NCBI GenBank assembly: GCA_022703765.1
Contig: JAKJHQ010000001.1
Span: 81,854 to 145,853 of the forward strand
Source of the DNA: Candidatus Wallbacteria bacterium
GTDB lineage: Bacteria > Muiribacteriota > UBA9980
Length of the DNA: 64,000 nt
Direction: 5' to 3'
Under the pieces are notes generated by a model, which worked only from the letters and a program-made list of their open reading frames with translations, did no database searches and was not told where the DNA came from. This document shows positions 1,531-47,266 of this stretch, piece by piece (the stretch's first letter is position 1; each line of letters opens with the position of its first letter). The translations under genes and the position numbers were made by a program.

Positions 1531-1552
1531 CGTTTAAATTTTTACGCCGTTT

Positions 1553-2281: not shown

Positions 2282-2521
2282 TATCAGTCACAATTTCGTA
2301 AAATAATTTCCTTATATATATCTTACATCAAATTCTCGTTTTTTTCAATATTTTAAAGGATTATTAAAAACATTTGCCTTAATGAATCCAATCAAAATAC
2401 CTCCATTATCGAATTCATTGATTAATCAAAACTCAAAACTTTCATTTTTCTTGTGTATAGATATTTTTTTCACCTTTTATAAAAAAAACCTAATTTTTTC
2501 AAAATTTTTATCGAAATTTAC

Positions 2522-2550
2522 TTGACATAAAAGAAGAAAAGTTGTATCAT
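2522..2550 (+). promoter_or_regulatory. Candidate sigma70 promoter (TTGACA-17-TATCAT) upstream of rex::hydC
   Basis: TTGACA at 2522-2527, a 17-nt spacer, then TATCAT at 2545-2550, about 45 nt upstream of the ATG at 2596. The surrounding region is AT-rich. Confidence 0.4.
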
Positions 2551-2595
2551 TTTATTAGTGAAAAAAATAACTAATCTTAAAGAGGGCTAAACGAT

Positions 2596-19284: not shown

Positions 19285-20528
19285 TCGTACCACCCGGCCT
19301 CCGGAATTATCGAAGCGAAACGGCCGCCGCGAGCCGTAAACGAGGCATTCGAAGATATTATATCGCGAGCGTATCCCGTTGCAAAAATTACGACCGCGTT
19401 TATATCGTTTCTTAAACCCAGCTCGGAAGGGGGCTTGATAGGAATATCGGTTCCCGGGATAAATTTGCCCTGATATAGCGGGTTTACGTCGATTACAAAA
19501 TTTATATCCGATGACGTCATGGCGCATATATTGATGAGCGAAACGCCGCGCTGGCCTGCGCCCCAGGCGCAAAAATTCGCGCCGCGGCTTCGGGCGGCGC
19601 TTAAAAATTGCCTGAATCCGTCGCAATATGATTTAACTTTAGCCGAAAACGACTTTAAACTTGAAATATCCGTCAATTTATCATCTTCATAAAACGAAGG
19701 CGATATTTTATAAGAAGGATAGAGGCCGCGATTTTTTTCAAATCCGGCATAAATCAAAATAGAGCCGCCTTCCAGCCCGTTGGTGACTGCGTCTATTACG
19801 AACAGGCCGTATTTTTTAAGAAGCTTCGAAAGCGTATCGAAAGAAAAGTAAGAAATGTGTTCATGAAAGAAAGCGTAAAACTGGTTTTGCGATATTATAT
19901 CGGCCGCGTAAGGCACTTCTATCGCGAGCACTCCTTTCTTTTCATCGAGCGCCGAGCATATCGGCTCCATAACGGCGTCGAAATCATTGAGATGCTCCAT
20001 GACATGCCTTATTATTATAACGCCGGCGCCGGCGCAAGTAAATTCTTCGGGCAGCCGGGCGATAGAGCCGCGGCCAAAATAATCGTTGATAATAATAGCC
20101 CCGACGCCGGACGCGCGGTCGGAAGTCAGTTTTGACGAAGGCTCAAATCCGGCCGCCATGGCGCCGCCGCGCGCGAATTCGTTTAGCAGAAAACCGTCGC
20201 CCGAGCCTATTTCAATTACCGTGCGCGGCGAAAACTTAGAAAAAATATCGCCGCAGAGCCAGCGGGCGTAATTTTTAAAGCTTTCCGAATGCGCCGGCGT
20301 ATATGTATAATCTTTATAAATGTCCGAAGATACTATATCGACGAGCTGAATAAGGCCGCATTCTTCGCAGCGGTATGCGTTAAGGGCGAAAAGCCCCGCA
20401 CGGCCTAGGGAAGGTCCCATGGAAGGATTGCCCGCGAGCGCGACTTCGGGCAGGCTTAAAAACATCTCCAGGCGGGCGCTTCCGCACAGCCTGCATTTTT
20501 GGTTTTTGGTGAAATAAATATCACTCAT
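19281..20528 (-). CDS. Class I SAM-dependent methyltransferase with an N-terminal Zn-ribbon (sugar C-methyltransferase family)
   Basis: Zn-ribbon CRLCGS...CEECG, SAM motif I (VIEIGSGDGFLL), and the ~415-aa length typical of TylC3/NovU-type C-methyltransferases. Confidence 0.5.
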   Translation of the reverse strand: MSDIYFTKNQKCRLCGSARLEMFLSLPEVALAGNPSMGPSLGRAGLFALNAYRCEECGLIQLVDIVSSDIYKDYTYTPAHSESFKNYARWLCGDIFSKFSPRTVIEIGSGDGFLLNEFARGGAMAAGFEPSSKLTSDRASGVGAIIINDYFGRGSIARLPEEFTCAGAGVIIIRHVMEHLNDFDAVMEPICSALDEKKGVLAIEVPYAADIISQNQFYAFFHEHISYFSFDTLSKLLKKYGLFVIDAVTNGLEGGSILIYAGFEKNRGLYPSYKISPSFYEDDKLTDISSLKSFSAKVKSYCDGFRQFLSAARSRGANFCAWGAGQRGVSLINICAMTSSDINFVIDVNPLYQGKFIPGTDIPIKPPSELGLRNDINAVVIFATGYARDIISSNASFTARGGRFASIIPEAGWYE

Positions 20529-21462
20529 AGCTTTTCAATATAGCCTCATAAGTTTTTTCCATGCCTTCTTTCAACTTAACCGCCGGGTTGAACCCCAGGT
20601 TTTTTCGCGCTTTCGAAATATCCAGCAGGCGGCGTTCAGGGTCTCCGGCCCGTTCAAGGCTGTATTCAACTTCCACTTCGGCCGAGCATATTTCAAAAGC
20701 GGCCGCCACGAGCCCGGCTATGCTTAACTCCTCGTCCGAACCTATATTGTACGATTCGCCGCTGCCGCCGTTTTTCGCAGCCAGAAAAGCCGCGTTAGCG
20801 GCGTCAGACGCATATAAAAAAGAGCGGCGAACCGAGGAGGCGTTTTTATTGACCCTTATTTTTTTGCCTTCGTGGATGTTTTTAAGAAGATACGGTATGA
20901 CGTGATTTTCTTCGATATCCCGCGGGCCGTAAATATTGGCGTATCTTAAATGGCAAATTCCGAAACGGTCTTTATAGCAGTTGCCGAGGTGCTCGGCAAG
21001 CATTTTGCCCAGAGCGTAAGACCAGCGGGGCGTGTTTTCTACGGCGTCGAATAAAGAAGGGGTAAGCTCGTCGGTGGGAATTTTCTGCGCATGGCCGTAT
21101 ATTTCGGAACTCGAAGCGTTGACGAATTTTTTGACGTTATGGGCCGCGGCCCAATCGAGCATAATTTTAGTGCCGAAGCAGTTATTGTTGAACGTGTCGA
21201 GCGCGCCTTCATAAAAAAATTTAGTGGCCACCACGGCGGCCATATGAAAAACGCAATCGAAATCAGCCAGCGGCATGGACGCTATATCGAGCACGTCGCC
21301 TTTAATGAATTTGAAGCCGGGCGAATTTATCACTTCCGAAAGGTTCTTTATATCGCCCCTGAAAAAATTGTCTATCGCCGTAACTTCAAAACCGGCTTCG
21401 ACGCACATTTCCGCCAGGTATGATCCCACCAGGCCGGCTGCGCCGGTAATTAAAACTTTAAT
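20521..21462 (-). CDS. NAD-dependent epimerase/dehydratase (SDR, UDP-sugar 4-epimerase/dehydratase family)
   Basis: The Rossmann motif KVLITGAAGLVGSYL is encoded upstream of the GTG used in the ORF track at 21429. There is an in-frame TGA at 21466-21468, so the only way to include the G-x-x-G-x-x-G loop is an ATT start at 21462. Catalytic YxxxK region (YALGKMLAE). Confidence 0.6.
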   Translation of the reverse strand: MKVLITGAAGLVGSYLAEMCVEAGFEVTAIDNFFRGDIKNLSEVINSPGFKFIKGDVLDIASMPLADFDCVFHMAAVVATKFFYEGALDTFNNNCFGTKIMLDWAAAHNVKKFVNASSSEIYGHAQKIPTDELTPSLFDAVENTPRWSYALGKMLAEHLGNCYKDRFGICHLRYANIYGPRDIEENHVIPYLLKNIHEGKKIRVNKNASSVRRSFLYASDAANAAFLAAKNGGSGESYNIGSDEELSIAGLVAAAFEICSAEVEVEYSLERAGDPERRLLDISKARKNLGFNPAVKLKEGMEKTYEAILKSYE

Positions 21463-21485
21463 AACTCATCGCCCCTTTCAGGCAC

Positions 21486-22331
21486 TTATTTTTTTGCCCC
21501 CGCGCGAGCGAACCGCCTTATATATTCGCGAAAAGTCCCGCATTTATAGGCTAGAGTATAAAAAGAGCGCATGGGCCAACCCGATTTTATCTTAAATTTA
21601 CTGCTGTTAAAATTAAACCAGGCGTTACGCCTTGCATTGTTATAAAAGATCTTCCATAAATCCGTAAAATTGGAAAATTTCGGCATATAAGCAGCGCATT
21701 GGGGCGCGATAACCGCGCTTTGCGGATAACGCCTGAGCAGTTCCGGCAGCAGGTTGAAATCGATGGGGTTCACGATGAAATCGTAGCCGCTTTGAATTTC
21801 GAGGTAGGTTTTAAATCTCATGGCTACCGCCATTACGTTGGCCTGCAGAAATATTTCGTATTTGTCGCCCGAAAACCCCGTAATGGTATTGCACATGGAA
21901 ATGCCGTATTTTTTTTCGCCGTAGGAAAGATTCATCTGATAAAACGATAAATTTTCCTGAGCAAGCACCGTGGAAGGTATTGAAAAAAGTATCCCCGGGT
22001 CTTTTTTCAAAGGCTCGACGATCCTTTCTATAAAATCGGAAGAGTAAAGTTCGCTGTCTTCGTTTATGAAAATTATATACTCCGGCCCGAATACGGGTAT
22101 TGTACCGCATTCCACGGGACTCGCCGCGCCTGATACGTTTTCTGATTTGCCGCCGCAGTCTTTATAATAGATAGATAATTGCTTCGCGCGCGGATAATCG
22201 TCGATATGCCTGTACGACGAAACATGCAGCGTGTAATCGGAACACTGCGACTGTCTGTCGAACGAATTCAATAATTTTTTAGACACTTCGAGCGATCTGG
22301 TGCATACGACGCAAAGTATTTTATCGTTCAT
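21486..22331 (-). CDS. Putative glycosyltransferase (GT-A-like), hypothetical
   Basis: Weak resemblance only: an N-terminal ILCVVCTRS (like the xVIIPTxN strand) and an acidic FINEDSE (DxD-like). Confidence 0.25.
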   Translation of the reverse strand: MNDKILCVVCTRSLEVSKKLLNSFDRQSQCSDYTLHVSSYRHIDDYPRAKQLSIYYKDCGGKSENVSGAASPVECGTIPVFGPEYIIFINEDSELYSSDFIERIVEPLKKDPGILFSIPSTVLAQENLSFYQMNLSYGEKKYGISMCNTITGFSGDKYEIFLQANVMAVAMRFKTYLEIQSGYDFIVNPIDFNLLPELLRRYPQSAVIAPQCAAYMPKFSNFTDLWKIFYNNARRNAWFNFNSSKFKIKSGWPMRSFYTLAYKCGTFREYIRRFARAGAKK

Positions 22332-22342
22332 CGAGGCAACGC

Positions 22343-23434
22343 CTACATTCCTTTAATGTCTTTGATAATGTTTTCTATAGTTTCGATCGGCGCGGTAAAA
22401 TCGTTAGGCATAAAAATAACGCTTTCTGAAGCTTTTATCGAATTTTTATAATCGGTTTCAGCCAGATCGTAATTTTTCTTGTAGTAGTGCGCCATAGGCA
22501 GCAGAACGGGCATTTTGCGCTGGGCCGGCAGCGGGTGCCTGGCTATTATTTTAGATATTTTATTATAGGCCTCGCGGCTTTCCACAAGCGCGGGCAGATA
22601 ATTAAAAGTGGTGAGCGAATAGTTGTTCTGATCGACGAATTTTATTTCGTTATGCCTCACGCTAATATCGCGCCTGTAATGCTTGGCCAGCATATATTTA
22701 TATTCGATAAGCGCGTCTATATGTTTTAAATGCTCGTTTATCAATCTGGCTTTTTCGTTAGACATGGTAAAATCGGGGACCGGAATTTTCAATTCGCCCG
22801 CTTCGTCGTAGCCGTTATTGAAAATAAGCTTGAGCCTGGCGTTTATCTTATCGTTAGAAGTGGCTATGATGGCCCCGCTGCCGCAGTTTATTATGGACGA
22901 CGAATCGAAGTTGAATATGGAAATATGACCGCGGCTCCCGCATTTTGCGCCTTTATAAACCGCGCCGAGCGACGTGGAAGCGTCTTCGATCACGAAAAAC
23001 TTATATATGGCGGCCGCTTCCATAATGGAATCTATCGCGCATGGCGCGCCGAACATATGCGAGGCGATGACGGCCTTCAGCTTATTGGTGCTCATAAGCT
23101 CCAGATGCGACATATTGGCGTTATAATTGGCAAGGTCGATATCTATGAACACGGGTTTACATCCGAAAAATTCGATCGCGCCGGGAATCTGCGGAAAATT
23201 AAAAGCCGACAGCGCTACCTGCGAATCGAAATCGAGGTTGAGCGTATAAAAAGAAATCAGAAGCGCCGCTGAAAACGACGATACGGGATAAGAATATTTA
23301 GCCCCGGTATAAGCGGAAAAATTAGCGGAAAGCTTTTCCAGCTCTTGCCTGGAGGCGGGCGCGTCAAAAACTGTCCTGATTTTATTTATGGGGTTATCAT
23401 ATATATTGGAACTGTAAATCGATTTTTCGCGCAT
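22343..23434 (-). CDS. DegT/DnrJ/EryC1/StrS-family PLP-dependent sugar aminotransferase/dehydratase
   Basis: Family-typical layout (FIDIDLANYN...ASHMFGAPC...VIEDASTSLGAVYKGAKCGSRG). The start is probably MREKSIY at 23434, because the longer ORF overlaps the upstream gene. Confidence 0.6.
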   Translation of the reverse strand: MREKSIYSSNIYDNPINKIRTVFDAPASRQELEKLSANFSAYTGAKYSYPVSSFSAALLISFYTLNLDFDSQVALSAFNFPQIPGAIEFFGCKPVFIDIDLANYNANMSHLELMSTNKLKAVIASHMFGAPCAIDSIMEAAAIYKFFVIEDASTSLGAVYKGAKCGSRGHISIFNFDSSSIINCGSGAIIATSNDKINARLKLIFNNGYDEAGELKIPVPDFTMSNEKARLINEHLKHIDALIEYKYMLAKHYRRDISVRHNEIKFVDQNNYSLTTFNYLPALVESREAYNKISKIIARHPLPAQRKMPVLLPMAHYYKKNYDLAETDYKNSIKASESVIFMPNDFTAPIETIENIIKDIKGM

Positions 23435-23453
23435 TTTTTCACTTTCCCGTAAT

Positions 23454-24890
23454 TTATTTGGACGAAGCGGCGGTAATATTTTTAAGTATTTTGGGGCAAA
23501 TGGTGTTGATGTCTCTTGCGCCCATAACAAGCACTATATAAGGCTCTTTACTGTTATCCCTGATGGCGTTGGTCACCGAAACGGCCGTGTCGTCGAGTGT
23601 GGCGCAGTAGCTTACGATGTCGCCCGAAAGCTTCGGCCTGATTTCTTCCACCAGTTCGCGCGAAGTGACGCTTTTATTGACCGTGCCGCCGCCGTAATAT
23701 ATTTCGTTGATAAAAAGCCTGTCGCGGGTTTTAAGGTCGGAAAAAGCTTCGCAGAGTTCGCTGCGCGTGAGAGCGGTAGGCCCGAAGCCGTGAGGCTGAT
23801 AAACCGCGATCACCGGCTTATTAAAAATTTTTACCGCGTCTATGGCTGTTTTGATTTCATGCGGGTTATGCGCGTAATCGTCGATCAGCACGACTCCTTC
23901 GTGGCGGCCCACTACTTCCAGGCGGCGGGCGACGCCGCCGTAGTTTTTGAGCCCGCGGGCGATATCGCCGAGAGCGGCTCCTGCCGTGTGGGAAGCTATT
24001 ATGGCTGCGGCGAAATTTTCAACGTTATGGCGGCCGATCAGGCCCGTTTCAAAAAAATGGCCGTTGATTTTAAAGCTGGAGCCTTCGGGTTTGAGGCTTA
24101 CTTCGCTTATAAGGTAATCGTTGTCGTAAGAATTTACATTTTTCGAATATTCAAAATTTATAATTTTATATTTTATGCGGTCCTTCGACGTGTCGCGCGC
24201 GTCGAAAAGTTTTGACACTTCGGGGCATGAAACGTTAATAAGGGCGTATCCGCCTTCGGTTATATTGGAAATGAAGGCGTTGAACAGAGCGTGCAGCTCG
24301 CCCAGCTCTTTGTGCTCTTTGGAAATGTTTGTGAGAAGCCCTATAAAAGGCTTATATTTAATAATCGTTCCGTCGGACTCGTCGGACTCTATCACGAAAT
24401 AATCCGATTTAGCGTAGCGCGAAGATACGTTGAAATTGCGCGAAACGCCGCCGATCACGAACGAAGGCGAAAGGCCGCACGAATCGAGTATAAAAGAAAC
24501 CATCGTGGACACGGATGTTTTGCCGGCGGTGCCCGCTACCGCTATGGAGCGGCTCGAGCGGTTGAAAAATTCGGCTAGAAGATCGGAGCGGTGCATTTCG
24601 GAAAGCCCCAGTTCACGGGCCTTTACGATATCGGCCACATTGTCCTCGATAGCGGTGGATTTTACGATGATGATTTCTTTGGCGCCGATTCCCGCGGCCG
24701 CGGCGAATTTTTCTATTCCGGAACCGTCCTGCGGATAAAGGCCTATCGATTTTGATTTGAATTCTTCGCATATCGCGCCCGAAAGGTTGCGGTCGGACCC
24801 CGCCACGCGGTGGCCCATTTCATGCGCTACGCGCGCTAAAGCCGACATGCCCGAACCGAGTATGCCGATAAAATAATAGCTTTTCATCAC
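23454..24890 (-). CDS. MurC/Mpl-type Mur ligase (UDP-N-acetylmuramate-amino acid/peptide ligase family)
   Basis: MurC-type N-terminal Rossmann (FIGILGSGMSALA...GSD), the Mur ligase P-loop (AVAGTAGKTSVSTMV), and the C-terminal domain (VARRLEVVGRHEGVVLIDDYAHNPHEI). 478 aa. Confidence 0.65.
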   Translation of the reverse strand: MMKSYYFIGILGSGMSALARVAHEMGHRVAGSDRNLSGAICEEFKSKSIGLYPQDGSGIEKFAAAAGIGAKEIIIVKSTAIEDNVADIVKARELGLSEMHRSDLLAEFFNRSSRSIAVAGTAGKTSVSTMVSFILDSCGLSPSFVIGGVSRNFNVSSRYAKSDYFVIESDESDGTIIKYKPFIGLLTNISKEHKELGELHALFNAFISNITEGGYALINVSCPEVSKLFDARDTSKDRIKYKIINFEYSKNVNSYDNDYLISEVSLKPEGSSFKINGHFFETGLIGRHNVENFAAAIIASHTAGAALGDIARGLKNYGGVARRLEVVGRHEGVVLIDDYAHNPHEIKTAIDAVKIFNKPVIAVYQPHGFGPTALTRSELCEAFSDLKTRDRLFINEIYYGGGTVNKSVTSRELVEEIRPKLSGDIVSYCATLDDTAVSVTNAIRDNSKEPYIVLVMGARDINTICPKILKNITAASSK

Positions 24891-24970
24891 AAACGTTCAC
24901 TCCATTAATTAATTTTGTATTATGCTATTTTTGTATAATATAATATAGTATATTTTATCGGAATTTATTG

Positions 24971-25675
24971 CTATTGCTTTATAATAGACTTGAAAATAAA
25001 AAGAAAAATTTCGGAATCGAGGTCTTCTTCTTTCTTTTTACTTATTTGAATTTTTCCATTGGAAGAAATTTTCATGGTGCGAATGCCGAAAGGAGTATTT
25101 AAAACTCCTTTGACGCTTTTTACGTTGGAAGTGTAATTATGGAAAGGCGAAATATCGGCCAGAGTTTCCATTTTACCGTCGAAACGGAGTTTTTTGATGG
25201 TCGGATGCTCCATTTTATCGAAATCCATGGTCTTTATGAAAGCCATCTGGTCGGAAATTTTTAATATTTTTTCGGGGGTTATGAAAACGGGGCGCGGTTC
25301 GATCTTGCTGAATTTGAAGATAAGCGCAAGGCCGGATTTTACGCCGGAATTTTTTCCGAAAGTGATAAGAAGGTCTTTAAATATGACGAAATGCCCTTCT
25401 TCCACTACGTAAAGCTTTTGCGTTTGCACGCGGCCTTCTTCGAGGGCGTCTATTTCGTGGGCTACTATTTCTTTAAAACTTACCGCCATGGCGTTATCGG
25501 CGATAATTTCATTGTAAAAGCCCGGCTGGTTTTCATCGAGAGCGCACTGATTTTCTTTCAGGCTGACGAATTTAAAAAGGTTTTTAACGTCCTGGCAGGG
25601 GAATTCGTAAAACTGAAAAGAGTTGCTTTTAGAAGATATTACAAGACCGCCCTGATTCTGGTTTTGATTCGCCAT
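24971..25675 (-). CDS. Hypothetical protein
   Basis: ORF with no recognisable motifs. The start was moved to the internal Met to avoid overlap with tRNA-Lys. Confidence 0.3.
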   Translation of the reverse strand: MANQNQNQGGLVISSKSNSFQFYEFPCQDVKNLFKFVSLKENQCALDENQPGFYNEIIADNAMAVSFKEIVAHEIDALEEGRVQTQKLYVVEEGHFVIFKDLLITFGKNSGVKSGLALIFKFSKIEPRPVFITPEKILKISDQMAFIKTMDFDKMEHPTIKKLRFDGKMETLADISPFHNYTSNVKSVKGVLNTPFGIRTMKISSNGKIQISKKKEEDLDSEIFLFIFKSIIKQ

Positions 25676-25688
25676 AAGTTTCCCCCGC

Positions 25689-25761
25689 AAATAAAAAATG
25701 AGCCGTAAAGGACTCGAACCTTTAACCTAGTGATTAAGAGTCACTTGCTCTGCCAATTGAG
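25689..25761 (-). tRNA. tRNA-Lys (anticodon CTT)
   Basis: The reverse complement folds as a cloverleaf: acceptor GGGCCGT/ACGGCTC (with one G·U), D-stem GCTC/GAGC, anticodon stem AGTGA/TCACT with loop CTCTTAA, and T-arm AAAGG-TTCGAGT-CCTTT. Confidence 0.85.
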
Positions 25762-25870
25762 CTAACGGCCCACTTAATTTTTAATTTTCAGCTGATTATA
25801 CATCAAAAATCTTTAAAAAGCAAGATTTTTTTAAAAATATTCCAAAATTCATTGAGTTGCGTATGGCTTT

Positions 25871-27085
25871 GTGATAGAATCGATTCGTAAAACCTCAAAT
25901 AGAAAGGCGATTGAATTGAAAAAAGATAAAAACATCATATTTTACCCAAGCGGACATGGTTTCGGCCACGCCGTCAGGCAGATCGAAATCATAAAGGAAA
26001 TTTTCAAATACAACATCGAAAATAAGCGCGAACACAAGGTCATCGTTAGGACAACCGCCCCCGAATGGGTTTTCACTAATTCGCTCGGCTTGTTTTTTAA
26101 AAAGTTATATCCTTCGCGCGCGGCTGAAATACCTCTCTGGTTCAGCTACAGCCGCTCGCTCAACGACGTGGGAACGGTCCAGTCGGACAGCCTGAACATG
26201 GATATAGGCGCCACTTACGAGGCCGCACGAAACTTTTATTCTAACTTTAAAGAAAGAGCTGCCATGGAGGCCGAATTCATTAAATCGAGCCGCGCGGACT
26301 TCGTGGTAGGCGATATCCCGCCCCTGGCATTCGCGGCCGCAAAACTCGCGGGCGTCAGGTCGGCCGGCGTCACCAATTTTTCCTGGGACTTCATTTACGA
26401 AGAATTCGCCGCTGAAAATAAAGGATTCAACGAAATAATAGATACCGTCAGAAGCGGATACGAAAAATGCGGCATGCTGCTTAAATTGCCTTTCGCATGC
26501 CCGCTTCCGGCTTTTAAAAACATTTCGCCGGTTTCCATGATAGCCAGAAAGCCTTATATTTCAAAAGAAGAGGCCCTTAAAATATTAAATATGGCCCCTG
26601 CGGAATTCGAAGGCGTAACAACGGTTATGATAAGTTTCGGCGGATTCGACACCGGCGGCATAAGGCATGAAAATCTATCCGGATACGCCGGTAAATTAAT
26701 GTTTTTAACCACCATAGCGCCCGCGGCCGGCGAAAAATATCCGTCTAACGTTAAATTCATAGACACCAGCTCCGGGGCGATTTCGTTTGAAAATTTATTC
26801 ACGGTATTCGATATAATAGCCACCAAACCGGGATACGGCGTGGTGGGCGACATAATAGGCGCGGATTCGACATGCCTTTTTACCGACCGCGGCCGCTTCC
26901 GCGAATACGAGTACCTGGTGGATTTTCTCAAAAAGCACACGCGGTCTTCGGTTTATATATCAAGAAACGAATTATTGAACTGCGATTTCGAGCCGCGCAT
27001 AAAAGAGCTGCAATCGCAAATTAAAAAGCCCGAACCTATCGATACGCGCGGCGCCTATGAATGCGCCATGGCTATTATCGAATAA
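25871..27085 (+). CDS. GT-B fold glycosyltransferase-like protein (MurG/UDP-glycosyltransferase-like), tentative
   Basis: N-terminal IIFYPSGHGFGHAVRQ (a Gly-rich loop of the G-x-G-x-G-H type). The C-terminal TKPGYGVVGDIIGADSTCLF resembles the GT-B donor-binding region. Confidence 0.35.
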   Translation: MIESIRKTSNRKAIELKKDKNIIFYPSGHGFGHAVRQIEIIKEIFKYNIENKREHKVIVRTTAPEWVFTNSLGLFFKKLYPSRAAEIPLWFSYSRSLNDVGTVQSDSLNMDIGATYEAARNFYSNFKERAAMEAEFIKSSRADFVVGDIPPLAFAAAKLAGVRSAGVTNFSWDFIYEEFAAENKGFNEIIDTVRSGYEKCGMLLKLPFACPLPAFKNISPVSMIARKPYISKEEALKILNMAPAEFEGVTTVMISFGGFDTGGIRHENLSGYAGKLMFLTTIAPAAGEKYPSNVKFIDTSSGAISFENLFTVFDIIATKPGYGVVGDIIGADSTCLFTDRGRFREYEYLVDFLKKHTRSSVYISRNELLNCDFEPRIKELQSQIKKPEPIDTRGAYECAMAIIE

Positions 27086-27112
27086 AAACGGGCCCTGATT
27101 TTATATCCGCGG

Positions 27113-27151
27113 AGCGCCTTCCCGGTAACTATATCGGGAAGGCGCTTTTAT
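27113..27151. terminator. Bidirectional terminator hairpin between convergent genes
   Basis: AGCGCCTTCCCG-gtaactatat-CGGGAAGGCGCT (12-bp stem) followed by TTTTAT and preceded by A/T-rich sequence. Confidence 0.6.
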
Positions 27152-27166
27152 AAAAAAGAAACTGTA

Positions 27167-27505
27167 TTAAGCTTTGAACTGCTTGACGGCGTCTTCTTCT
27201 TTTTCGAACACTTTAAAAATTGAATTAAAACCGGTTAATTTAAACACTTCATCGACCGTTCCGTGCAGGCCGCAAACGTAAATATCGCCCTGTTTGGCCT
27301 TTGCGCGTTTCGCCGACGCGAGGACGCCTCTAAGCCCGGCGCTGCTTATATATTCCAGTTCCTGAAAATTTACTACGAAAAAAAGGTTATTTTCAGCCAT
27401 TAATTCGCTCATCTTTTTTTCGAATTCCGGAGCCGAATTAGCGTCCATTCTTCCGTTAACGCCAAGGACGGAAACGTTTCCCTCTTTTTTTAACGATATC
27501 TGCAT
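27167..27505 (-). CDS. STAS-domain anti-sigma-factor antagonist (SpoIIAA-like)
   Basis: 112 aa. The conserved phospho-Ser context is ELEYISSAGLRGVL. Typical STAS length. Confidence 0.7.
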   Translation of the reverse strand: MQISLKKEGNVSVLGVNGRMDANSAPEFEKKMSELMAENNLFFVVNFQELEYISSAGLRGVLASAKRAKAKQGDIYVCGLHGTVDEVFKLTGFNSIFKVFEKEEDAVKQFKA

Positions 27506-27621
27506 ATTGACACCTCTTAATTATTATCTTGCCATGTTTAATATTTTAAATCATTATACATTAAGAAAAAAAAAAATTCAAGCAAAATGAATTTGGCGGC
27601 AACAATGAATTAGCAATCCCA

Positions 27622-30105
27622 TTATAAATACCGGCAACGCATTTCATAATCGGTAATTTTAACGCGGCGGCCCGGGCTCAATATTATGCCGCCGCAGTTT
27701 TGCGAATCAAACAGTTTATAACCCAGATTTAAATATCTTTGCAGCGCCTCTTTATGCGGATGCCCGAACTTATTCGACGCGCCGCTGGAAATAAAAGCCG
27801 CTCCGGCCCCGCAGGCCGATAAAAATTCGGCGCCGGATGAGTATTTAGAGCCATGATGCGGCGCTTTTATAAAATCGAACCCGGTTTCGCCTATTTTTTT
27901 AATAAGGGGTTTTTCGGCCGCGCCGGTGATATCGCCGCAAAAAAGCGCGGCGCGATTATTAACCCGGACCGCCGCCACCAGTGAAGAATCGTTGGCATCT
28001 TCATTAGAGCCGGTTTCCGGCCATAAAAATTCGAGCACCGCTCCGTCGCAATTAATCTTTTCGCCCGCCGAAACGCTTTTTACGCCGCGCGCGATGCTTA
28101 GTAGTTTTTTAAATTCAATTTCTTCGCGGCCGGTTTCATGATAAAGCAGATTCTTGATTTTTATTTTCGGATTTTTATATAAATTCAACGCGCCGCAATA
28201 GTGGTCCATGTGCGCATGCGTAATTATCAAATATTCGATTTCATCGATCTGGCGGTATCTTAAATACGGGGCGATAACTTTAGAATATGCCGATCGGCCG
28301 CCGCCAGCGTCGATGATTATCCATTTACGGCCGGAAGTCTTCACCAGCGCGCAATCGCCCTGGCCGACGTCGAGAAATATCATTTCCGCGCCTTCCATCG
28401 ATTTAACCGCGAAGCCTCGAATATTAAAAAGCGCTAATATTATAAGCGCGGCCGCCGCTAATTTTGCCGGCGTAAGTTCGGCCCCGCGCGCGAAGCGGAA
28501 CGCTAAAAACGCCAGGAACAAATATATTGCCGCCATTTCGAAAAACCCGAGTTTATATATGGCGATATTTCCCATCGGCAGAGAAGAAAGCCATTCGTTT
28601 AACTTTAGCGCTGCGAAGGTTACGTGGTATATAAGCGAAGCAGCGCCCCAGGCCAGCCATGAGCTGAAAAAAGAAAAAAATATAAAAATCAGGCAGAGCG
28701 CGAGCAATATTTCATATATCCATAAAGTAAAAATATTTGCGGGCAGCGAGTTAAGCGGAAAATAGCCAGATATAAAAGAAATCAGCGGATAAGATGCCGC
28801 CATGGCGATAAAGCTGATTTTGCAATAATCCATAATAGCATTTAAATAAGGGCTTTTTAAAAAATTTATTTCATAATCGCATGCCGCTATGATTGCGAAA
28901 GTGGAAATATAAGAAAGCCAGAAACCCGCGCTGAAGATAAATCTTGGAAATAAAACGATGTGGAAAAAAAGCGCGGCTATAAAAATATTGTATTTATTCA
29001 CGCCGCGCTCCAATGCTCCGCAGGCGGCAGCCGCAGCAAAAGAGATATATGCGCGGGTCACGGCGGCCTGAAACCCCGTAATCAAAAAATAAACGCTCAC
29101 AAACGTAAAAGCCGCCAGTGAAGCCTTTCTCGAATCGACATTCAGCGCCGAAAGCGCCGATAAAATAAACGCCGCCAGAAGCGTCACGTGGCCGCCGCTT
29201 ACTACCAGAACGTGCAGAAGGCCGCTTTCGGTGAATTCGAAAATTTCGTCGTTGTCCAGATATATATTTTCGCCGAGCGCCGAAGAATCTCCGAGCGCGA
29301 ATGCCCTGAGAAAACCCGAAACGCCGGGCGGAAAATATTTTTCGAACAGCCCTTTCACTTTATTTTTAATCGAGGCCGCGAAAGAGCCGCTTTTTTTAAT
29401 TATCTTCACCCCGCCGGCCGGAGCGGTAAGAACGTATAAAATTTCATGCTGCAGGGGATTGTAATTTATCGGAAGATGAGGGTTTTTATATTTATGCATC
29501 CGTTTCACTATTCCCGAAACTTCCACCAGATCGTTTTCTTCGAGTCCGCCGGACCCGGATGCGGATTCCGTCAGGCCGCCTTCTTCTGCTTCGCAGCGCA
29601 AAAATATCCGGCCGTATATATTTTTAAAAGCGCCGCTTTTAGCGTCGTAAAGTTTTTCCACATCGAGCGCGGCGGTAAGATAGTTTTTTCCATATTCCCC
29701 GCCGTTATGATTTTCGACACTAACCGTCGAACCCGTAACCTTTATGAAAGCGTCCTGCTTTAAAACGCGGTTTATGCCGTTAGATATATAAGCAGTTTCG
29801 GCCGCGCACCGGAGCATGGCGCATAAAAAAACTGCCGCCATCAATAAAAACGCGGTGTAAATTCCGCCTGAAAATTCCCGACCTTTTATTCCTCCTTCGC
29901 AGCCAGCGGGAGTTTTAAAATAGTCTTCAGCCGCAAAAGCTCGTTTTTTATAAACAGCCATAGCGCCGGCCGCCGCCGCTAAAAATGCGATAATAGCTAT
30001 GGCTGCGCGCCGGGCCGTCATGGCCGGCGCGCATAAAATCCCCAGAATATAAAATATTATTATAGATAAAAGCTTATAATTCATACCGCGCCTTAAACCG
30101 CGCAA
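27622..30105 (-). CDS. comEC: DNA internalization competence protein ComEC/Rec2 (with a C-terminal metallo-beta-lactamase domain)
   Basis: Polytopic membrane core (competence domain) plus a C-terminal MBL motif (ITHAHMDHYCG). 827 aa. The start may instead be the Met at 30084. Confidence 0.8.
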   Translation of the reverse strand: MRGLRRGMNYKLLSIIIFYILGILCAPAMTARRAAIAIIAFLAAAAGAMAVYKKRAFAAEDYFKTPAGCEGGIKGREFSGGIYTAFLLMAAVFLCAMLRCAAETAYISNGINRVLKQDAFIKVTGSTVSVENHNGGEYGKNYLTAALDVEKLYDAKSGAFKNIYGRIFLRCEAEEGGLTESASGSGGLEENDLVEVSGIVKRMHKYKNPHLPINYNPLQHEILYVLTAPAGGVKIIKKSGSFAASIKNKVKGLFEKYFPPGVSGFLRAFALGDSSALGENIYLDNDEIFEFTESGLLHVLVVSGGHVTLLAAFILSALSALNVDSRKASLAAFTFVSVYFLITGFQAAVTRAYISFAAAAACGALERGVNKYNIFIAALFFHIVLFPRFIFSAGFWLSYISTFAIIAACDYEINFLKSPYLNAIMDYCKISFIAMAASYPLISFISGYFPLNSLPANIFTLWIYEILLALCLIFIFFSFFSSWLAWGAASLIYHVTFAALKLNEWLSSLPMGNIAIYKLGFFEMAAIYLFLAFLAFRFARGAELTPAKLAAAALIILALFNIRGFAVKSMEGAEMIFLDVGQGDCALVKTSGRKWIIIDAGGGRSAYSKVIAPYLRYRQIDEIEYLIITHAHMDHYCGALNLYKNPKIKIKNLLYHETGREEIEFKKLLSIARGVKSVSAGEKINCDGAVLEFLWPETGSNEDANDSSLVAAVRVNNRAALFCGDITGAAEKPLIKKIGETGFDFIKAPHHGSKYSSGAEFLSACGAGAAFISSGASNKFGHPHKEALQRYLNLGYKLFDSQNCGGIILSPGRRVKITDYEMRCRYL

Positions 30106-31329: not shown

Positions 31330-31947
31330 TCAGTATATTACAAAATGCTTATTAAGCTTGCGCATTCTTTTCTTGCCGATGCCTTCTATCGCGCCTAGAG
31401 ATTTTAAAGATTCGATTCTTCCGCCGTTATTTCGCCTGAATTCGATAATTTTTTCACCCACCTTTGCGCCGACGCCTTTGATATTTTTGAAATCTTCCAC
31501 GGAAGCCGAATTAATATCTATTTTAGGTTCCTGCGGGTTTTCGGCGTTTGCATAAAGTTCGAATTCCTGCGGATCGTCTATCTGCGGCGAAGGATCGTCC
31601 GCCACCATAATTTTATCTTTAACGGCTTCATACAAACGTTCTCCGATGCCTCCTACTTTTTTTATTTCGCATCTGGTTTTAAATCCGGAATTTTTTTCCC
31701 GGTATGCTATTATCTTTGCCGCCATGGCGGGCCCTACGCCTTTAAGCGCCATAAGTTCCGCCGCCTGGCATGTGTTTATGTCGAGCGGAAAATTTGCGCT
31801 TTCGATAACTTCGGGCGCAGTGCCTTCGGAACCGGCCGCCCATTGGGAATATCCGGAGCACAGGTTGATAAAAATTCCGAGCGCCGAAACCGCGCAAATA
31901 ATAAAAATAAGTCTGGACTCTTCCTTTGAAAATTTTAAAAATTCCAT
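31330..31947 (-). CDS. comEA: Competence protein ComEA (tandem helix-hairpin-helix DNA-binding domains)
   Basis: N-terminal TM anchor. Two HhH units: LMALKGVGPAMAAKII and FKNIKGVGAKVGEKIIEF. Confidence 0.75.
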   Translation of the reverse strand: MEFLKFSKEESRLIFIICAVSALGIFINLCSGYSQWAAGSEGTAPEVIESANFPLDINTCQAAELMALKGVGPAMAAKIIAYREKNSGFKTRCEIKKVGGIGERLYEAVKDKIMVADDPSPQIDDPQEFELYANAENPQEPKIDINSASVEDFKNIKGVGAKVGEKIIEFRRNNGGRIESLKSLGAIEGIGKKRMRKLNKHFVIY

Positions 31948-32387
31948 TGAACCGCCTCCATTAATTTAATATTTCCTTTTCATTTCGAGCGATTAGTGTA
32001 AAACCGTCGCCTAATCCGATACATTTCAAAGTTACTTTCCATAAAACAAGTTTTGTGCCATAAAAAATATCTTCAAAAAGCCTTTAAAACCGTGTTCCGT
32101 TTTCACCAATTCTCATTTTGAGATTTCTTTAAATTAGTTAATTCACTATTTAAGGCTGTTTAAGGCAAAAAATACCGATATCGTTTTAAGACTTAATTCT
32201 CAAAACGATACCAGAGCATTTTTTTGGCTCTTTTTTTGTGTGGGAAGTTTGTCAGTGGATAGTGAATAGTTTTAGAATATTATTTAAAATTTAAATAAGT
32301 TCCTTTGTGCTTTAGCGGGTAGTTTTGGGCAGGGTGCCAGACAAGTTTTTTCGGGGACGCGTTCTAAAATCCCTCCGGGATTTTAGC

Positions 32388-32487
32388 CGCTTGAGCTCAG
32401 CGCCTCACGCCCATCCCGGGCTTCGGCGCTTCCGCTACACCCCTCAAAAATTTTGTCTGGCCCCTGCTATAAGCTTAAAATCAACTT
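32388..32487. repeat. Degenerate direct repeat, copy 1 (~100 bp), containing local hairpins
   Basis: Shares ...CCCATCC...GGGCT(T/C)CGGCG(C/A)TTCCGCTACACCCCT(C/T)AAAAATT...TCTGGCCCCTGCTA(T/C)AAGCTTAAAATCAACTT with copy 2. GCCAGACAA at 32337 can pair with TTGTCTGGC at 32452. Confidence 0.6.
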
Positions 32488-32582
32488 AAAAATAAGTTGA
32501 TTAACCAAAATGTATAATATAAAACTTTAATATTCCCTCACCAGCAAGCCGTTGCCGTCCATGGCGCGTGCTGCATTAGGGC

Positions 32583-32708
32583 CTCCGAGCTCCGATCCCG
32601 CCCATCCGACAGACATGGATGGCAAGGAGGCGGCCTTGGGCTCCGGCGATTCCGCTACACCCCTTCAAAAATTATTCTGGCCCCTGCTACAAGCTTAAAA
32701 TCAACTTT
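32583..32708. repeat. Degenerate direct repeat, copy 2
   Basis: See copy 1. About 85% identity over the 3' 70 bp, with an insertion containing the hairpin CCATCCgacagacatGGATGG. Confidence 0.6.
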
Positions 32709-32809
32709 AACAATGGATTACAACCTGAAAGTTCTTTTTATAGGCTGGTTAACACAAAAGCCTACTATAAAACCATAATTTTGACTAACCAGCAAGCCAT
32801 TATTGCTGC

Positions 32810-32837
32810 GCAGACGCGCGCGTAAGCGCGCGTCTGC
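32810..32837. repeat. Perfect GC-rich palindrome: 12-bp arms GCAGACGCGCGC-gtaa-GCGCGCGTCTGC
   Basis: Read directly from the sequence. It is followed by AAAAAA on the plus strand, i.e. there is no U-run 3' of the hairpin in plus-strand RNA (read in the minus-strand RNA direction the run lies 5' of the hairpin), so it is not a canonical terminator in either orientation. Confidence 0.6.
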
Positions 32838-33148
32838 AAAAAACAGAACCATAAAAACAAAAATAGAAATAGAAAAATAGAAAGATAAAAAAAAGTGGTA
32901 CGAAAAGAAATATTGGCAATTAAGGAAAATAAAAGTAAATCAGAAAAGAATTTGTAGCAACATAAGAAAAGAGCTTAGCCTAATTAAAGCCCCGGCAGAA
33001 AAGCAGGCACTTTGCAAAATAAAGCGTCAGGCTAATTTGGGGTTGGAAGGGATTTTAAGGGAAGGGAGGGGCCTTTGGCCTCTAGCCTTCCCTTATCGAA
33101 TAAACAAATTATTATTCGAATTTTTTTCAACCTTAATTATAGGCAGGA

Positions 33149-35179
33149 TCAATAAGCATAAACTTTGAACATATCGCCGGGAGCGCCTGCAAATATTATC
33201 AGGCCGCCTTTCGGAAGATAAAATTCGCCTTTATCCACGGCGCTGTCGAACACAAGGCCTTCTCCGCCAGCCGCCATTACTCTGGAGCCGGCAGGAAGTT
33301 CGCCAAATTTGACCACGGCGCCTTTATCCGATTTAAGCCATTCGTTCCACTGCTCGGTTTTGATGGTAACGCGGTTAACGCCGCTGACAAGTTTTCTGGC
33401 TGTATCTTCGGACGAATACATGAACATATTAGATTTGATCCATGTTTCGCCGTTGACATCGACGAGTTTGAGCGACGACTGATCGCGAAAAGCCGTGGCA
33501 GCTATTTCCGCACAATCGGGACCTTCGATTTTTTTAAGGCCTCCGAAGCTGACGTAACCCGGAAGCGCCTCATAGGCTTTAGCTTCGACGAGGCCGACCA
33601 TAGCGTATACCACCTGAGCCGGCATATTTCTAACAAGCCATTTTTTACCGGCGATATCGGCCCTTAATTTTTGAGGGTTTTCGATCTTTTCGATCTTCTG
33701 GTACATGAGCATATCGACGCCGTAATTAGGAACCTTATGAGCCGCTATGTAGGTCTTGCCGTCGACGACGGTGAAGTAAAGCGTCATTTTCTTTTCATGA
33801 TAATAAAAATAACCGCCGTTATGAACTAAAGACATTACGGCCGGCTCTTCTTTAGATGCGCCGGGAGCAACTTCGGCGGGAGCGGCCAGTTCCATTTTTC
33901 CGTTATCGCGGTCGAAGCGGACTCTGACTACGCTGTCGGCGTTGCAGTAATATCCTTCGAACTTGAGTAATTCTTCGGGTACGGGGCGGGCTTCGACAGG
34001 TTTTTCTACGGGCTTCGCCGGCGGTATCTGGATTTTCTTCGCTTTCATCACGGCGTCGAGTATCGGGCGCGACAATTCTTCGAGGTCTGCGACGCTGCCG
34101 GTTATCGAATAAACGACCGTGACTCCGTGTTTGGGAACGGTCTGCATATAAGTGCTGTAGCAGGTGGTTCCGCCGCTTTTAGCGAGCACCTGGATGCCGA
34201 GGTCGGCGTAATCTGGCAGCGACGAATAGTCCCAGCCGAATTCGTTGAGTATCTGGGGCCCGCGGAGTTTGTCGTAAAATTTAGTGGGCTGCGATTTCAG
34301 AATCTCGGCCACGGATGCGTCGGACAGAACGCGCTTTGCGAAAGGGGAAAAGCTCGAGGCGAATCGGCACATATCGGAAGCTGTCGACGAAAGTCCGCCG
34401 GCGCCGTAAACCATTACGACCTCGCGCGGATATTTTTTACCGTTCTTCAGTCCGTAGTATTCGGCGGTGTTTTCAACGCCGGCCTCGCCGACTGAGACAC
34501 CCGTGTTTTTCATGCCGAGCGGTTTAAATACGCGGCGCGCCAGAAAATCGATGAATTTTTCGCCTGAGACGCGCTCGACGATCATTTCAGCAAGGGTGAA
34601 GCCGTCGTTGCAATATATTTGCATAGCGCCGGGGGCGTGTTTGAGATAGGCTTCGGCCATGCTGTCGATAAGGTAGCGGTGCATATTTTCATCTACGGCG
34701 TATCCGAAATAAAAATGCGAGCCGGGCAGGCCGGAGGAATGGTTGAAAAGCATGCGCACGGTAATGTCGCGATAGCGCGGGTCTTTCATTCTGAATTCGG
34801 GAAGGTAATTGACCACCGGGTCGTCCAGGCGCACTTTGCCGTCGTCGACCAGAAGCAGTATTCCGACAGCGGCGAACATTTTGCTGGTGGAACCGACGTT
34901 AAAGCGCGTTTCGGGGTTAACCGGCCGGTTAGCTGCGCGGTCGGCTGCGCCGAAGCCTTCGGCATAAACTATCTTTCCTTCGTCGGCGACGGCGACGGTG
35001 GCGCCGCTGCAAAACCCGCCGGCGATGGACTTCCACATAGTTTCACGGGCGGTCTTTATCGCCTCGCTGTAATCGATTGAAGCGCGCTTACGCACACCGG
35101 AAGCTTCGGCCAAGCCTGTGTTGGATGTGAGTAATAAAATCGAAGACGCCAGAAGAACCGCAGTAATTTTTTTAAACAT
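33149..35179 (-). CDS. Secreted serine hydrolase of the beta-lactamase/PBP (class C-like) family, with a C-terminal extension domain
   Basis: Signal peptide, then the S-x-x-K active site (FNVGSTSKMF). 676 aa. Confidence 0.65.
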   Translation of the reverse strand: MFKKITAVLLASSILLLTSNTGLAEASGVRKRASIDYSEAIKTARETMWKSIAGGFCSGATVAVADEGKIVYAEGFGAADRAANRPVNPETRFNVGSTSKMFAAVGILLLVDDGKVRLDDPVVNYLPEFRMKDPRYRDITVRMLFNHSSGLPGSHFYFGYAVDENMHRYLIDSMAEAYLKHAPGAMQIYCNDGFTLAEMIVERVSGEKFIDFLARRVFKPLGMKNTGVSVGEAGVENTAEYYGLKNGKKYPREVVMVYGAGGLSSTASDMCRFASSFSPFAKRVLSDASVAEILKSQPTKFYDKLRGPQILNEFGWDYSSLPDYADLGIQVLAKSGGTTCYSTYMQTVPKHGVTVVYSITGSVADLEELSRPILDAVMKAKKIQIPPAKPVEKPVEARPVPEELLKFEGYYCNADSVVRVRFDRDNGKMELAAPAEVAPGASKEEPAVMSLVHNGGYFYYHEKKMTLYFTVVDGKTYIAAHKVPNYGVDMLMYQKIEKIENPQKLRADIAGKKWLVRNMPAQVVYAMVGLVEAKAYEALPGYVSFGGLKKIEGPDCAEIAATAFRDQSSLKLVDVNGETWIKSNMFMYSSEDTARKLVSGVNRVTIKTEQWNEWLKSDKGAVVKFGELPAGSRVMAAGGEGLVFDSAVDKGEFYLPKGGLIIFAGAPGDMFKVYAY

Positions 35180-46971: not shown

Positions 46972-47045
46972 TAGCGAAGGAGGGACTCGAACCCACGACA
47001 ACACGGTTATGAACCGTGTGCTCTAACCACCTGAGCTACTTCGCC
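46972..47045 (-). tRNA. tRNA-Met (anticodon CAT; elongator-type, possibly tRNA-Ile2)
   Basis: The reverse complement is GGCGAAGTAGCTCAGGTGGTTAGAGCACACGGTTCATAACCGTG...TTCGAGTCC...CTTCGCTA. Cloverleaf with a CAT anticodon. Confidence 0.8.
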
Positions 47046-47097
47046 ACATATTTGGTAAAAGCTCGGTTAACGTAAGTTTTGCCGAGCTTTTAATATA

Positions 47098-47172
<75 letters not shown>

Positions 47173-47181
47173 TCGTAAAAA

Positions 47182-47266
47182 TGCCTAGGGCCGGAATTGA
47201 ACCGGCACGGGGCCAAACCCCAACGGATTTTAAGTCCGCTGTGTCTACCAGTTCCACCACCCAGGC
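47182..47266 (-). tRNA. tRNA-Leu (anticodon TAA), class II with a long variable arm
   Basis: The reverse complement is GCCTGGGTGGTGGAACTGGTAGACACAGCGGACTTAAAATCCGTTGGGGTTTGGCCCCGTGCCGGTTCAATTCCGGCCCTAGGCA. Confidence 0.85.

Follow-up and report, generated by a model that had tools for sequence, protein, structure and literature searches.

A gene-free tract of a Wallbacteria contig holds a composite copy from a lineage-specific family of mosaic repeats with strong strand polarity and a well-supported three-way junction

The gene-free tract between comEA and a beta-lactamase-family gene in a Candidatus Wallbacteria contig (JAKJHQ010000001.1), at positions 31948-33148 of the 64,000-nucleotide stretch analysed here (the window), contains an interspersed repeat of mosaic build that is specific to the lineage and is present here as a composite copy. 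The copy spans ~32255-33097 and belongs to a non-coding, modular family whose polarity relative to replication is unusually strong and whose three-way junction is well supported, and for which we infer a mechanism at the replication fork. The element encodes no protein, stands at dozens of sites and has a near-uniform replication polarity, and on these grounds is probably mobile DNA carried as a passenger, not a gene.

Copies of the element were located by two scans. A core motif (GGCGNTTCCGCTACACCCCT) used as query against a genome collection found 16 loci, 14 of them on different contigs of the metagenome-assembled genome (MAG) bacterium ADurb.Bin243 and often at contig ends, one in MAG JPNA_metabat.86 and one a chance-like match. 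The core, whose copy number a sequence-only reading of this DNA had put forward for checking, is thus not restricted to this locus. The tail motif, scanned against metagenomes, found 76 further loci, all from anaerobic digester or activated-sludge samples. Dereplication of the 91 loci leaves 57 site groups, or 74 distinct 3' flanks. Copies are 0.1-0.9 kb long and intergenic at every position examined, and the window holds a single one. As far as the searches reach, the family is restricted to one uncultured digester clade. Viral contigs gave 0 matches with two patterns, and blastn found no match in phage and plasmid collections; with no integrase or prophage genes flanking the element either, the earlier suggestion of att-like remnants is not borne out.

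The repeat accounts both for the 1.2-kb 'empty' intergenic tract and for the breaks of public assemblies there. Ten public contigs that encode an identical ComEA protein are 99.9-100% identical to the window over the overlap, and nine of the ten contigs on the comEA side break off within the tract, three of them at window position 32327 and the others at 32384, 32388, 32427, 32454, 32632 and 32790. On the beta-lactamase side, two of three contigs end inside the element, at ~32650 and ~32300. These contig-end loci (L002-L010, L028 and L029) lie at window 32327-32790, and assembly GCA_029557635.1 has one part of the locus on contig JAKQIG010000521.1 and the other on JAKQIG010000438.1.

Across the family the modules keep a fixed order and orientation: UP, a long hairpin of A5 and CORE with or without B5, T3a, a small hairpin, T3b, an A-rich microsatellite and the tail. 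The number of A5-CORE units per copy ranges from 0 to 3, and the copies, which all end alike at the 3' side, form a nested series (full length; T3a-T3b-tail; tail only). On the full-length reference the 5' endpoints form three modular classes, at about 1-105, 311-369 and 432-510, in favour of which random 5' truncation was rejected. The window copy is a fusion of unit 1, UP-A5-CORE-T3a, with unit 2, (B5)-CORE-INS2-T3a-T3b-A-rich-tail. Its parts, and one feature beside it, are as follows.

32255-32306, plus strand: remnant of UP at the 5' edge of the element, with AGTGRATAG heptamer repeats and a conserved lead-in, TTTAAAyAAGTTCCTTTG..TTTAGC
32307-32480, plus strand: long hairpin of unit 1 (A5 and CORE), a three-way junction, from the fold and the 16-copy alignment
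32481-32500, plus strand: small hairpin TCAACTT-AAAAAT-AAGTTGA, within 32481-32550
Within 32481-32550, plus strand: T3a of unit 1, which is copy 1 of block D2 and ends in ACCAGCAAGCC at 32540-32550
32551-32637, plus strand: 5'-truncated B5, including the hairpin CCATCC-gacagacat-GGATGG at 32602-32622
32638-32710, plus strand: CORE copy 2, with the 3'-arm variant TTCAAAAATTATTCTGGCC and no matching 5' arm in the window
32711-32739, plus strand: linker INS2, after CORE copy 2
32740-32798, plus strand: T3a copy 2, first part of the module at 32740-32837 that most copies of the family possess
32790-32808, plus strand: hairpin CAGCAAGCCATTATTGCTG, after T3a copy 2
32810-32837, plus strand: T3b, the perfect GC palindrome GCAGACGCGCGC-GTAA-GCGCGCGTCTGC, an inverted repeat of 100% complementarity
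32838-32965, plus strand: A-rich linker with a microsatellite of AAAAATAG / AAAAAACAGAAAC type, placed by tandem repeat finder at 32859-32893
32966-33097, plus strand: tail module, the 3' end common to all family members, running from ATAAAGCGTCAGGC to GGGGTTGGAAGGGATTTT, the terminal hairpin and ATC
32165-32240, both strands: back-to-back terminator-like hairpins, left of the element and outside the repeat family

The junction of the two units, 32550/32551, lies exactly at a 9-nt microhomology, CAGCA(A/C)GCC, that is common to the end of T3a and the start of B5. Because the units are joined there, CORE and T3a are doubled, and these doubled modules are what the sequence-only reading had described as ~100-bp direct repeats. 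The two related segments exist and are larger than it had described: block D1 (32418-32490 against 32638-32710) covers 73 nt at 88% identity and block D2 (32492-32553 against 32740-32801) covers 62 nt at 74% identity, the copies being spaced 220-248 nt apart. They do not stand as an independent repeat. Both motif blocks are confined to the tract within the window, where the chance expectation is ~0. The unpaired second copy is a 5'-truncated unit. Its CCATCC...GGATGG hairpin, which had been noted before, is present, and the two ACCAGCAAGCC motifs recur as described, at 32540 and 32788 rather than 32541 and 32780. The two sequences previously singled out as complementary also exist, with GCCAGAC starting at 32336 and AAAATTTTGTCTGGC at 32447, so that some of the earlier coordinates were off by 1-8 nt. 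The (A)nTAGAAA repeats noted in the A-rich remainder of the tract are a short microsatellite at 32859-32893.

Both edges of the window copy can be placed by comparison with the family. Likeness to other copies begins at ~32260-32290, and left of ~32260 no other locus matches. In UP the heptamer repeats (AGTGAATAG) are followed in many copies by a terminator-like hairpin; a sigma70-like match, TTGTCA-18-TAGAAT (10/12), overlaps UP at 32249-32278, and the copy at L019 has an equivalent promoter-like site and then a terminator-like site. The tail measures ~130 nt throughout the family and has the form AAGGGAAGGGAGGGGCC-loop-GGCxCCTCGCCTTCCCTT followed by ATC and usually by an A-run. Its terminal hairpin in the window, AAGGGAAGGGAGGGGCC-TTT-GGCCTCTAGCCTTCCCTT at 33057-33094, ends 3 nt short of the 3' boundary, and GGGGTTGGAAGGGATTTTAAGGGAAGGGAGGGG (33040-33072), which fits the canonical G-quadruplex motif, overlaps the 5' arm of this hairpin. 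The A-rich linker varies in length and sequence among copies, and the unit number of its (AAAAAACAGAAAC)n repeat differs greatly (window 32838-32965; L013, L015, L096), which makes it a possible slippage hotspot. One copy of the element, at L025, carries a group II intron in its tail (1462-3355 on the plus strand of that locus, equivalent to window 33054/33055) with an intact open reading frame (ORF) for a 465-aa reverse transcriptase/maturase (L025 1879-3276). Read on the element minus strand, this intron sits directly after the terminal hairpin, with the junction ...CCCTTAA/GTGCG..., a placement that recalls the targeting of terminator-like stem-loops by class C introns.

The long hairpin of unit 1 consists of three helices, in which P1 pairs 32328-32356 with 32442-32468, P2 occupies 32359-32390 and P3 occupies 32392-32440. 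GGGCAGGG forms its 5' foot, with GTAG 4 nt upstream (window 32321-32334). Elsewhere in the family B5 is an optional insertion within P3 or the apical part of the long hairpin, and at L012 and L026 A5-B5-CORE forms one hairpin. The long-range complementarity around copy 1 that the sequence-only reading had pointed out is confirmed: arms at 32333-32356 and 32441-32464 enclose the hairpin CTAAAATCCC-tcc-GGGATTTTAG, and the 181-nt fold around this copy has a minimum free energy of -85.8 kcal/mol, with z = -9.2 on the plus strand and z = -7.8 on the minus strand. Copy 2, which lacks the 5' arm, folds no better than shuffled sequence.

Comparison between copies gives this fold its strongest support. 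In a structure alignment of 16 complete A5-CORE hairpins, the consensus is a three-way junction of 140 nt or longer with 54 pairs, and 99.4% of the alignment cells hold standard pairs. Compensatory double changes occur at 11 of the 54 pairs, the observed values being reached in 0 of 500 column shuffles, and when partners are slid by 1-3 columns as a control, pairing falls to 34-59%. Three versions of P3 occur, each of them fully compensated (AGCGCC/GGCGCT, GGCCCT/AGGGCC and GGCTTC/GAAGCC), covariation in the P1 arms gives GACAAG/TTTTGTC, GATAATT/AATTATTC and CCATAC/GTATGG, and the arm variants of TTCAAAAATTATTCTGGCC type likewise covary in complete copies. Among 42 variants of the tail hairpin, stem position 10 covaries through G:C, C:G, T:A and A:T. 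The hairpins are under selection and are kept by compensatory changes. In the tail, the G-rich 5' arm is nearly invariant over the 42 variants while its 3' partner varies, which argues for a constraint beyond pairing. Interior stem G.T pairs lie on the plus strand, where the minus-strand fold has A.C mismatches, and weakly suggest that the plus strand is the one that folds.

The orientation of the family was measured at 45 sites, each oriented by its element, from the GC skew of the flanks on the element plus strand. Flank skew is positive, placing the element plus strand on the G-rich strand, at 37 of the 45 sites (p = 1.5e-5), and among sites with an absolute skew of at least 0.03 positive values outnumber negative ones by 31 to 3 (p = 8e-7). 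The skew does not depend on the direction of the genes, at +0.0567 where genes are co-oriented with the element and +0.0562 where they are anti-oriented. Protein genes over all fetched loci are divided almost evenly, with 50.6% on the G-rich strand and 49.4% on the other, a strand bias that is unusually low for a bacterium. The G-rich strand is usually read as the leading-strand sequence, which is also the sequence of the lagging-strand template, single-stranded at the fork. On GC skew, the element plus strand would have the leading-strand sequence and hence that of the lagging-strand template. The element shows no such relation to the genes beside it: the 3'-side gene is co-oriented with it in 7 and opposite in 6 of the first 16 loci, and flanking coding sequence at the 45 site representatives is co- to anti-oriented in a ratio of 51:49. 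This random orientation relative to genes rules out a leader of a downstream gene family. In the window, GC skew of the plus strand is negative in 14 of 15 overlapping 8-kb windows, the exception being 20001-28000 at +0.012, and all four tRNA genes (25699-25771; 46972-47266) lie on the minus strand, which is the G-rich one.

Neither coding capacity nor the ends of a conventional transposon could be found in the element. As the sequence-only reading had noted, the tract has no credible ORF, those inside it being only 43-68 aa long, and no ORF is conserved across the copies compared. Small tail ORFs ('...GLEGILREGRG...') were considered and rejected, the frame being lost between copies because of indels in the loop. 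Terminal inverted repeats are absent, the 5' end (AGTGAATAGTG... or ...AAGTTCCTTTGCATTTTAGC) not being complementary to the 3' end (...GCCTTCCCTTATC). Nor was a target-site duplication detected over 42 sites, where the longest word shared by the two flanks averages 6.83 nt against 6.69 nt for mismatched pairs, duplications of 2-4 nt being beyond this test. In ~7 full copies the sequence flanking the imprecise 5' boundary is rich in T and tends towards TTAT. Rfam, at its gathering threshold over the whole window, returns four tRNAs elsewhere and nothing in the tract; at E<=10 (Rfam 15) the tract has only chance-level matches and the canonical copies L019 and L012 have none. These scans uphold the earlier failure to match RNase P, transfer-messenger RNA (tmRNA) or signal recognition particle (SRP) RNA in the tract, and they leave 6S, group II intron and HEARO/omega-RNA equally unsupported. 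An internal promoter in T3a (TTGAYT-17-TAAAAC) was also rejected, its -35-like box missing in many copies and nothing recurrent emerging from a scan. The T3b and tail hairpins are not intrinsic terminators, A-runs following them on the plus strand and T-runs preceding them on the minus strand; a terminator-like form is seen only at 32165-32240, beside the element, and in UP of other copies.

Among known systems, the closest in behaviour at the fork is the IS200/IS605 family, in which the top strand is excised as a single-stranded circle and integrates at the lagging-strand template, genome copies being oriented accordingly (PMC5027513). IS200/IS605 elements and the ORF-less palindrome-associated transposable elements (PATEs) resemble the present element in having no terminal inverted repeats, no target duplication, subterminal hairpins and one 'active' strand. 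Their active strand, like the plus strand here as read from GC skew, is biased to the lagging-strand template (PMC5027513). Unlike IS200/IS605, the element has neither tnpA nor tnpB near its copies in the fetched loci, no target tetranucleotide definable as conserved from ~7 full copies, and left ends in three nested classes, and unlike the left and right ends (LE and RE) of IS608 its left and right hairpins are unrelated in sequence. Repetitive extragenic palindromes (REPs) and the bacterial interspersed mosaic elements (BIMEs) built from them offer a second comparison. REP/BIME sequences are mosaics that a Y1 transposase, acting on single-stranded DNA, diversifies and amplifies in tandem, and a GTAG tetranucleotide stands 5' of the REP hairpin (PMC3333891). 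Like the element, they are non-coding, occur in many copies and only between genes, combine a small set of module types in varying arrangement and tandem number, and are built on imperfect palindromes in which compensatory changes preserve the stems. The single-stranded DNA chemistry proposed below would account for such variability and tandem multiplication. A GTAG lies 5' of the long hairpin in ~12 of 16 element copies as well, a likeness that was noticed post hoc. REPs are 30-40 nt long, usually paired head-to-head and without net polarity; the element differs in its length of 0.2-0.9 kb, fixed module order, strong orientation bias and microsatellite, in hairpins that comprise a junction of at least 140 nt, a 28-nt palindrome and a 38-nt tail hairpin, and in the lack of a REP-associated tyrosine transposase (RAYT) gene in the fetched loci.

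The architecture of the element also recalls the pneumococcal BOX elements, modular intergenic repeats of about 100-300 nt with the structure boxA-boxB(n)-boxC. In both, the terminal modules are constant, the internal ones vary in number and a stable secondary structure is predicted, while their sequences are unrelated and their hosts belong to different clades; to our knowledge, no replication-strand polarity has been reported for BOX. Miniature inverted-repeat transposable elements (MITEs) such as Correia/NEMIS, Nezha and bcr1 are non-coding, multi-copy, intergenic and assembly-breaking and have long hairpins. The element shares with them its copy number (at least 57 sites), shortness, lack of coding, long hairpins and assembly breaks, and lacks their terminal inverted repeats and target-site duplications; its 30-nt inverted arms are internal to A5-CORE and are not the ends of the element as in a MITE. 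Of the options named by the sequence-only reading, a MITE- or REP-like element nevertheless comes closest, in that the family is multi-copy and dispersed, breaks assemblies and differs in its interiors between strains at orthologous sites. Without terminal inverted repeats or target-site duplications it is no classical MITE, and it is too long and modular for a classical REP.

We favour, with slightly less than even confidence, a family of non-autonomous mobile elements that is handled as single-stranded DNA at the replication fork. It is favoured because the hairpins of one strand are compensated, terminal inverted repeats, target-site duplications and coding are lacking, modules are shuffled and tandemly amplified, and the polarity is unlike that of the genes. 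In this scheme the plus-strand hairpins would be exposed as lagging-strand template and recognised by an enzyme acting in trans, most obviously a candidate Y1 HUH transposase. Modules would then be shuffled, duplicated and truncated as strands are cleaved and transferred and as copies recombine with one another. We infer this single-stranded DNA mechanism, and likewise the existence and identity of the mobilising enzyme. Several observations weigh against such an element. The hairpins at its two ends are unlike each other, no conserved target tetranucleotide is definable at the 5' flank of the ~7 full copies, and the direction of replication is read from GC skew alone. Over the 91 loci no protein family recurs beside the element, and the 2.5 kb around each copy hold no small ORF with an HUH-like motif; the ~0.6 Mb of fetched loci contain no Y1/HUH or other transposase, although a single-copy partner elsewhere would escape such a search. 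Neither a clean empty site nor a footprint of excision came to light, since the one related locus that lacks the element also lacks the neighbouring gene, and the interior differences between near-identical flanks could partly be chimeras of metagenome assembly. Finally, the window copy itself has the minority orientation, being reversed because the skew of the window plus strand is negative.

The same features could in part be produced by genes for RNA. If the copies were multicopy structured non-coding RNA genes on the plus strand, the junction hairpin and G-rich tail would be functional RNA, and the leading-strand bias would follow from selection against head-on collisions between replication and transcription. 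The very stable and covariation-supported secondary structure agrees with this, as do G.U pairs tolerated on the plus strand only, the sigma70-like match at the 5' edge of the window copy and of L019, and a tail hairpin 5' arm that is invariant beyond the needs of pairing. The element is also co-directional with inferred replication, and the four tRNA genes of the window likewise lie on the G-rich strand. The conserved structure similarly speaks for the paralogous small RNAs suggested by the sequence-only reading, but no Rfam match appears even at E<=10 for the tract, L019 or L012, the promoter-like site does not recur in short forms, and on neither strand does a U-run come after any of the hairpins. 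Many copies are reduced to the tail or lack the hairpin, which is unexpected for ~50 functional genes, and since protein genes are unbiased, selection for a polarity of 82-91% would demand extreme expression. RNA genes are on balance an unlikely explanation. We attach a comparably low probability to a previously undescribed kind of replication-polarised, protein-less mosaic element, which would work through its three-way junction and G-rich tail on a single strand of DNA or RNA. It would be either the non-autonomous partner of an as yet unrecognised single-stranded DNA recombinase or a host-needed carrier of polar motifs of the GGGNAGGG type, and on both counts more than a further look-alike of REP, BOX or PATE.

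A role for such motifs also enters a reading that we consider slightly less probable still, namely an intergenic 'architecture' repeat that is retained by the host and was spread or homogenised mainly by recombination or gene conversion. Its single orientation would come from polar motifs (FtsK-orienting polar sequence (KOPS)-like GGGNAGGG, Chi-like sequences or G-quadruplexes), or it would act as an insulator or as a stabiliser of mRNA 3' ends. On the plus strand, GGGCAGGG in the foot of the hairpin and GGGAAGGG in the tail hairpin (33059-33066) resemble GGGNAGGG, which we take to be the E. coli KOPS consensus, and the likeness is one of resemblance only. Outside the elements, in 289 kb, GGGNAGGG occurs 8 to 2 and GGGCAGGG 5 to 0 on leading against lagging strand, but these counts are too small to carry the KOPS idea and are consistent with base composition, and there is no sign that the host organism uses GGGNAGGG. 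The persistence of the element at an orthologous site and the terminator-like hairpins of the UP module would suit host retention, and concerted evolution is implied by a window copy that is closer to its ADurb.Bin243 paralogs than to its L106 ortholog. Recombination alone, however, fails to explain more than 57 unrelated intergenic sites, and the main hairpins are followed by A-runs, not T-runs, and are not intrinsic terminators on either strand. Much the least probable explanation is a retroposed RNA resembling a short interspersed nuclear element (SINE), a master transcript on which a reverse transcriptase already resident in the cell, for instance that of a group II intron, starts copying at the 3' end, with 5' truncation where strong hairpins stall synthesis. 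The common 3' end, the nested 5' classes that start just 3' of the strongest hairpins and the A-run after the 3' hairpin in most copies are what such copying would leave, and the clade does possess a group II intron with an intact 465-aa reverse transcriptase, inserted in one copy. Retrotransposition of introns is moreover biased in orientation toward the lagging-strand template, which counts in favour of this explanation. Against it, target-site duplications are lacking, the 5' ends are modular and not scattered, and Rfam scans find no ribozyme or intron features in the element. As read from the sequence, the A-run pairs with a T-run 5' of the terminal hairpin and is probably structural. We also know of no bacterial precedent for a SINE-like retroposon, which further lowers its standing.

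The history of the locus can be followed in related genomes. At L106, in MAG JPNA_metabat.86, where the flanking genes are ~88% identical, the orthologous site is occupied by a one-unit form of the element, A5-B5-CORE-T3a-T3b-tail. The element must therefore have been inserted before the two lineages separated, and the two-unit form of the window is derived. Over A5-CORE, the window copy is nonetheless 92-94% identical to copies of ADurb.Bin243 against 81-86% to the L106 ortholog, and at L037/L073 and L056/L094 the flanks are 92-99% identical yet the interiors differ. The similarity of paralogs and the differing interiors argue for exchange between copies, to which assembly chimeras may contribute. 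Some copies (L046, L081, L073, and L056/L057 against L094) share one flank and differ in the other flank or the interior; they are either repeat-mediated rearrangements or chimeric contigs joined at repeats. The relative with a ComEA of 97% identity (L106) carries the element; from a more distant one, with a ComEA of 63% identity, both the element and the beta-lactamase-family gene are missing, so that it is uninformative as an empty site. This 676-aa gene (33149-35179) is absent from a distant relative (L109 4613-5000) that keeps the synteny of an ankyrin-repeat gene and comEA. The beta-lactamase-family gene may have been acquired along with the element, or one after the other.

On its left the tract is bordered by comEA (31330-31947, minus strand), with recA and comEC beyond, and on its right by the beta-lactamase-family gene, also on the minus strand, whose 3' end faces the tract. 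ComEA is called at 205 aa in the window and at 239 aa in its 97%-identical relative (L106 5001-5720), and with its start codon uncertain the left border of the gene-free tract could shift by up to ~100 nt. Of the back-to-back hairpins at 32165-32240, the minus-strand terminator-like site has a 17-bp stem and a T-run, from 32214 to 32175, and the plus-strand site reads AGAGC..GCTCT followed by T7 at 32214-32240. From their place between the comEA promoter region and the element, they would shield comEA against transcripts that originate in the element or pass through it.

The interest of the family is moderate rather than broad, since as far as searched it is confined to one uncultured digester clade. 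What sets it apart is a combination, in which interspersed non-coding repeats with a replication-strand polarity of 82-91% occur among protein genes that are unbiased, and carry a 140-nt junction that is supported by covariation. Polarity and junction together suggest that the underlying mechanism is linked to the single-stranded DNA of the replication fork.

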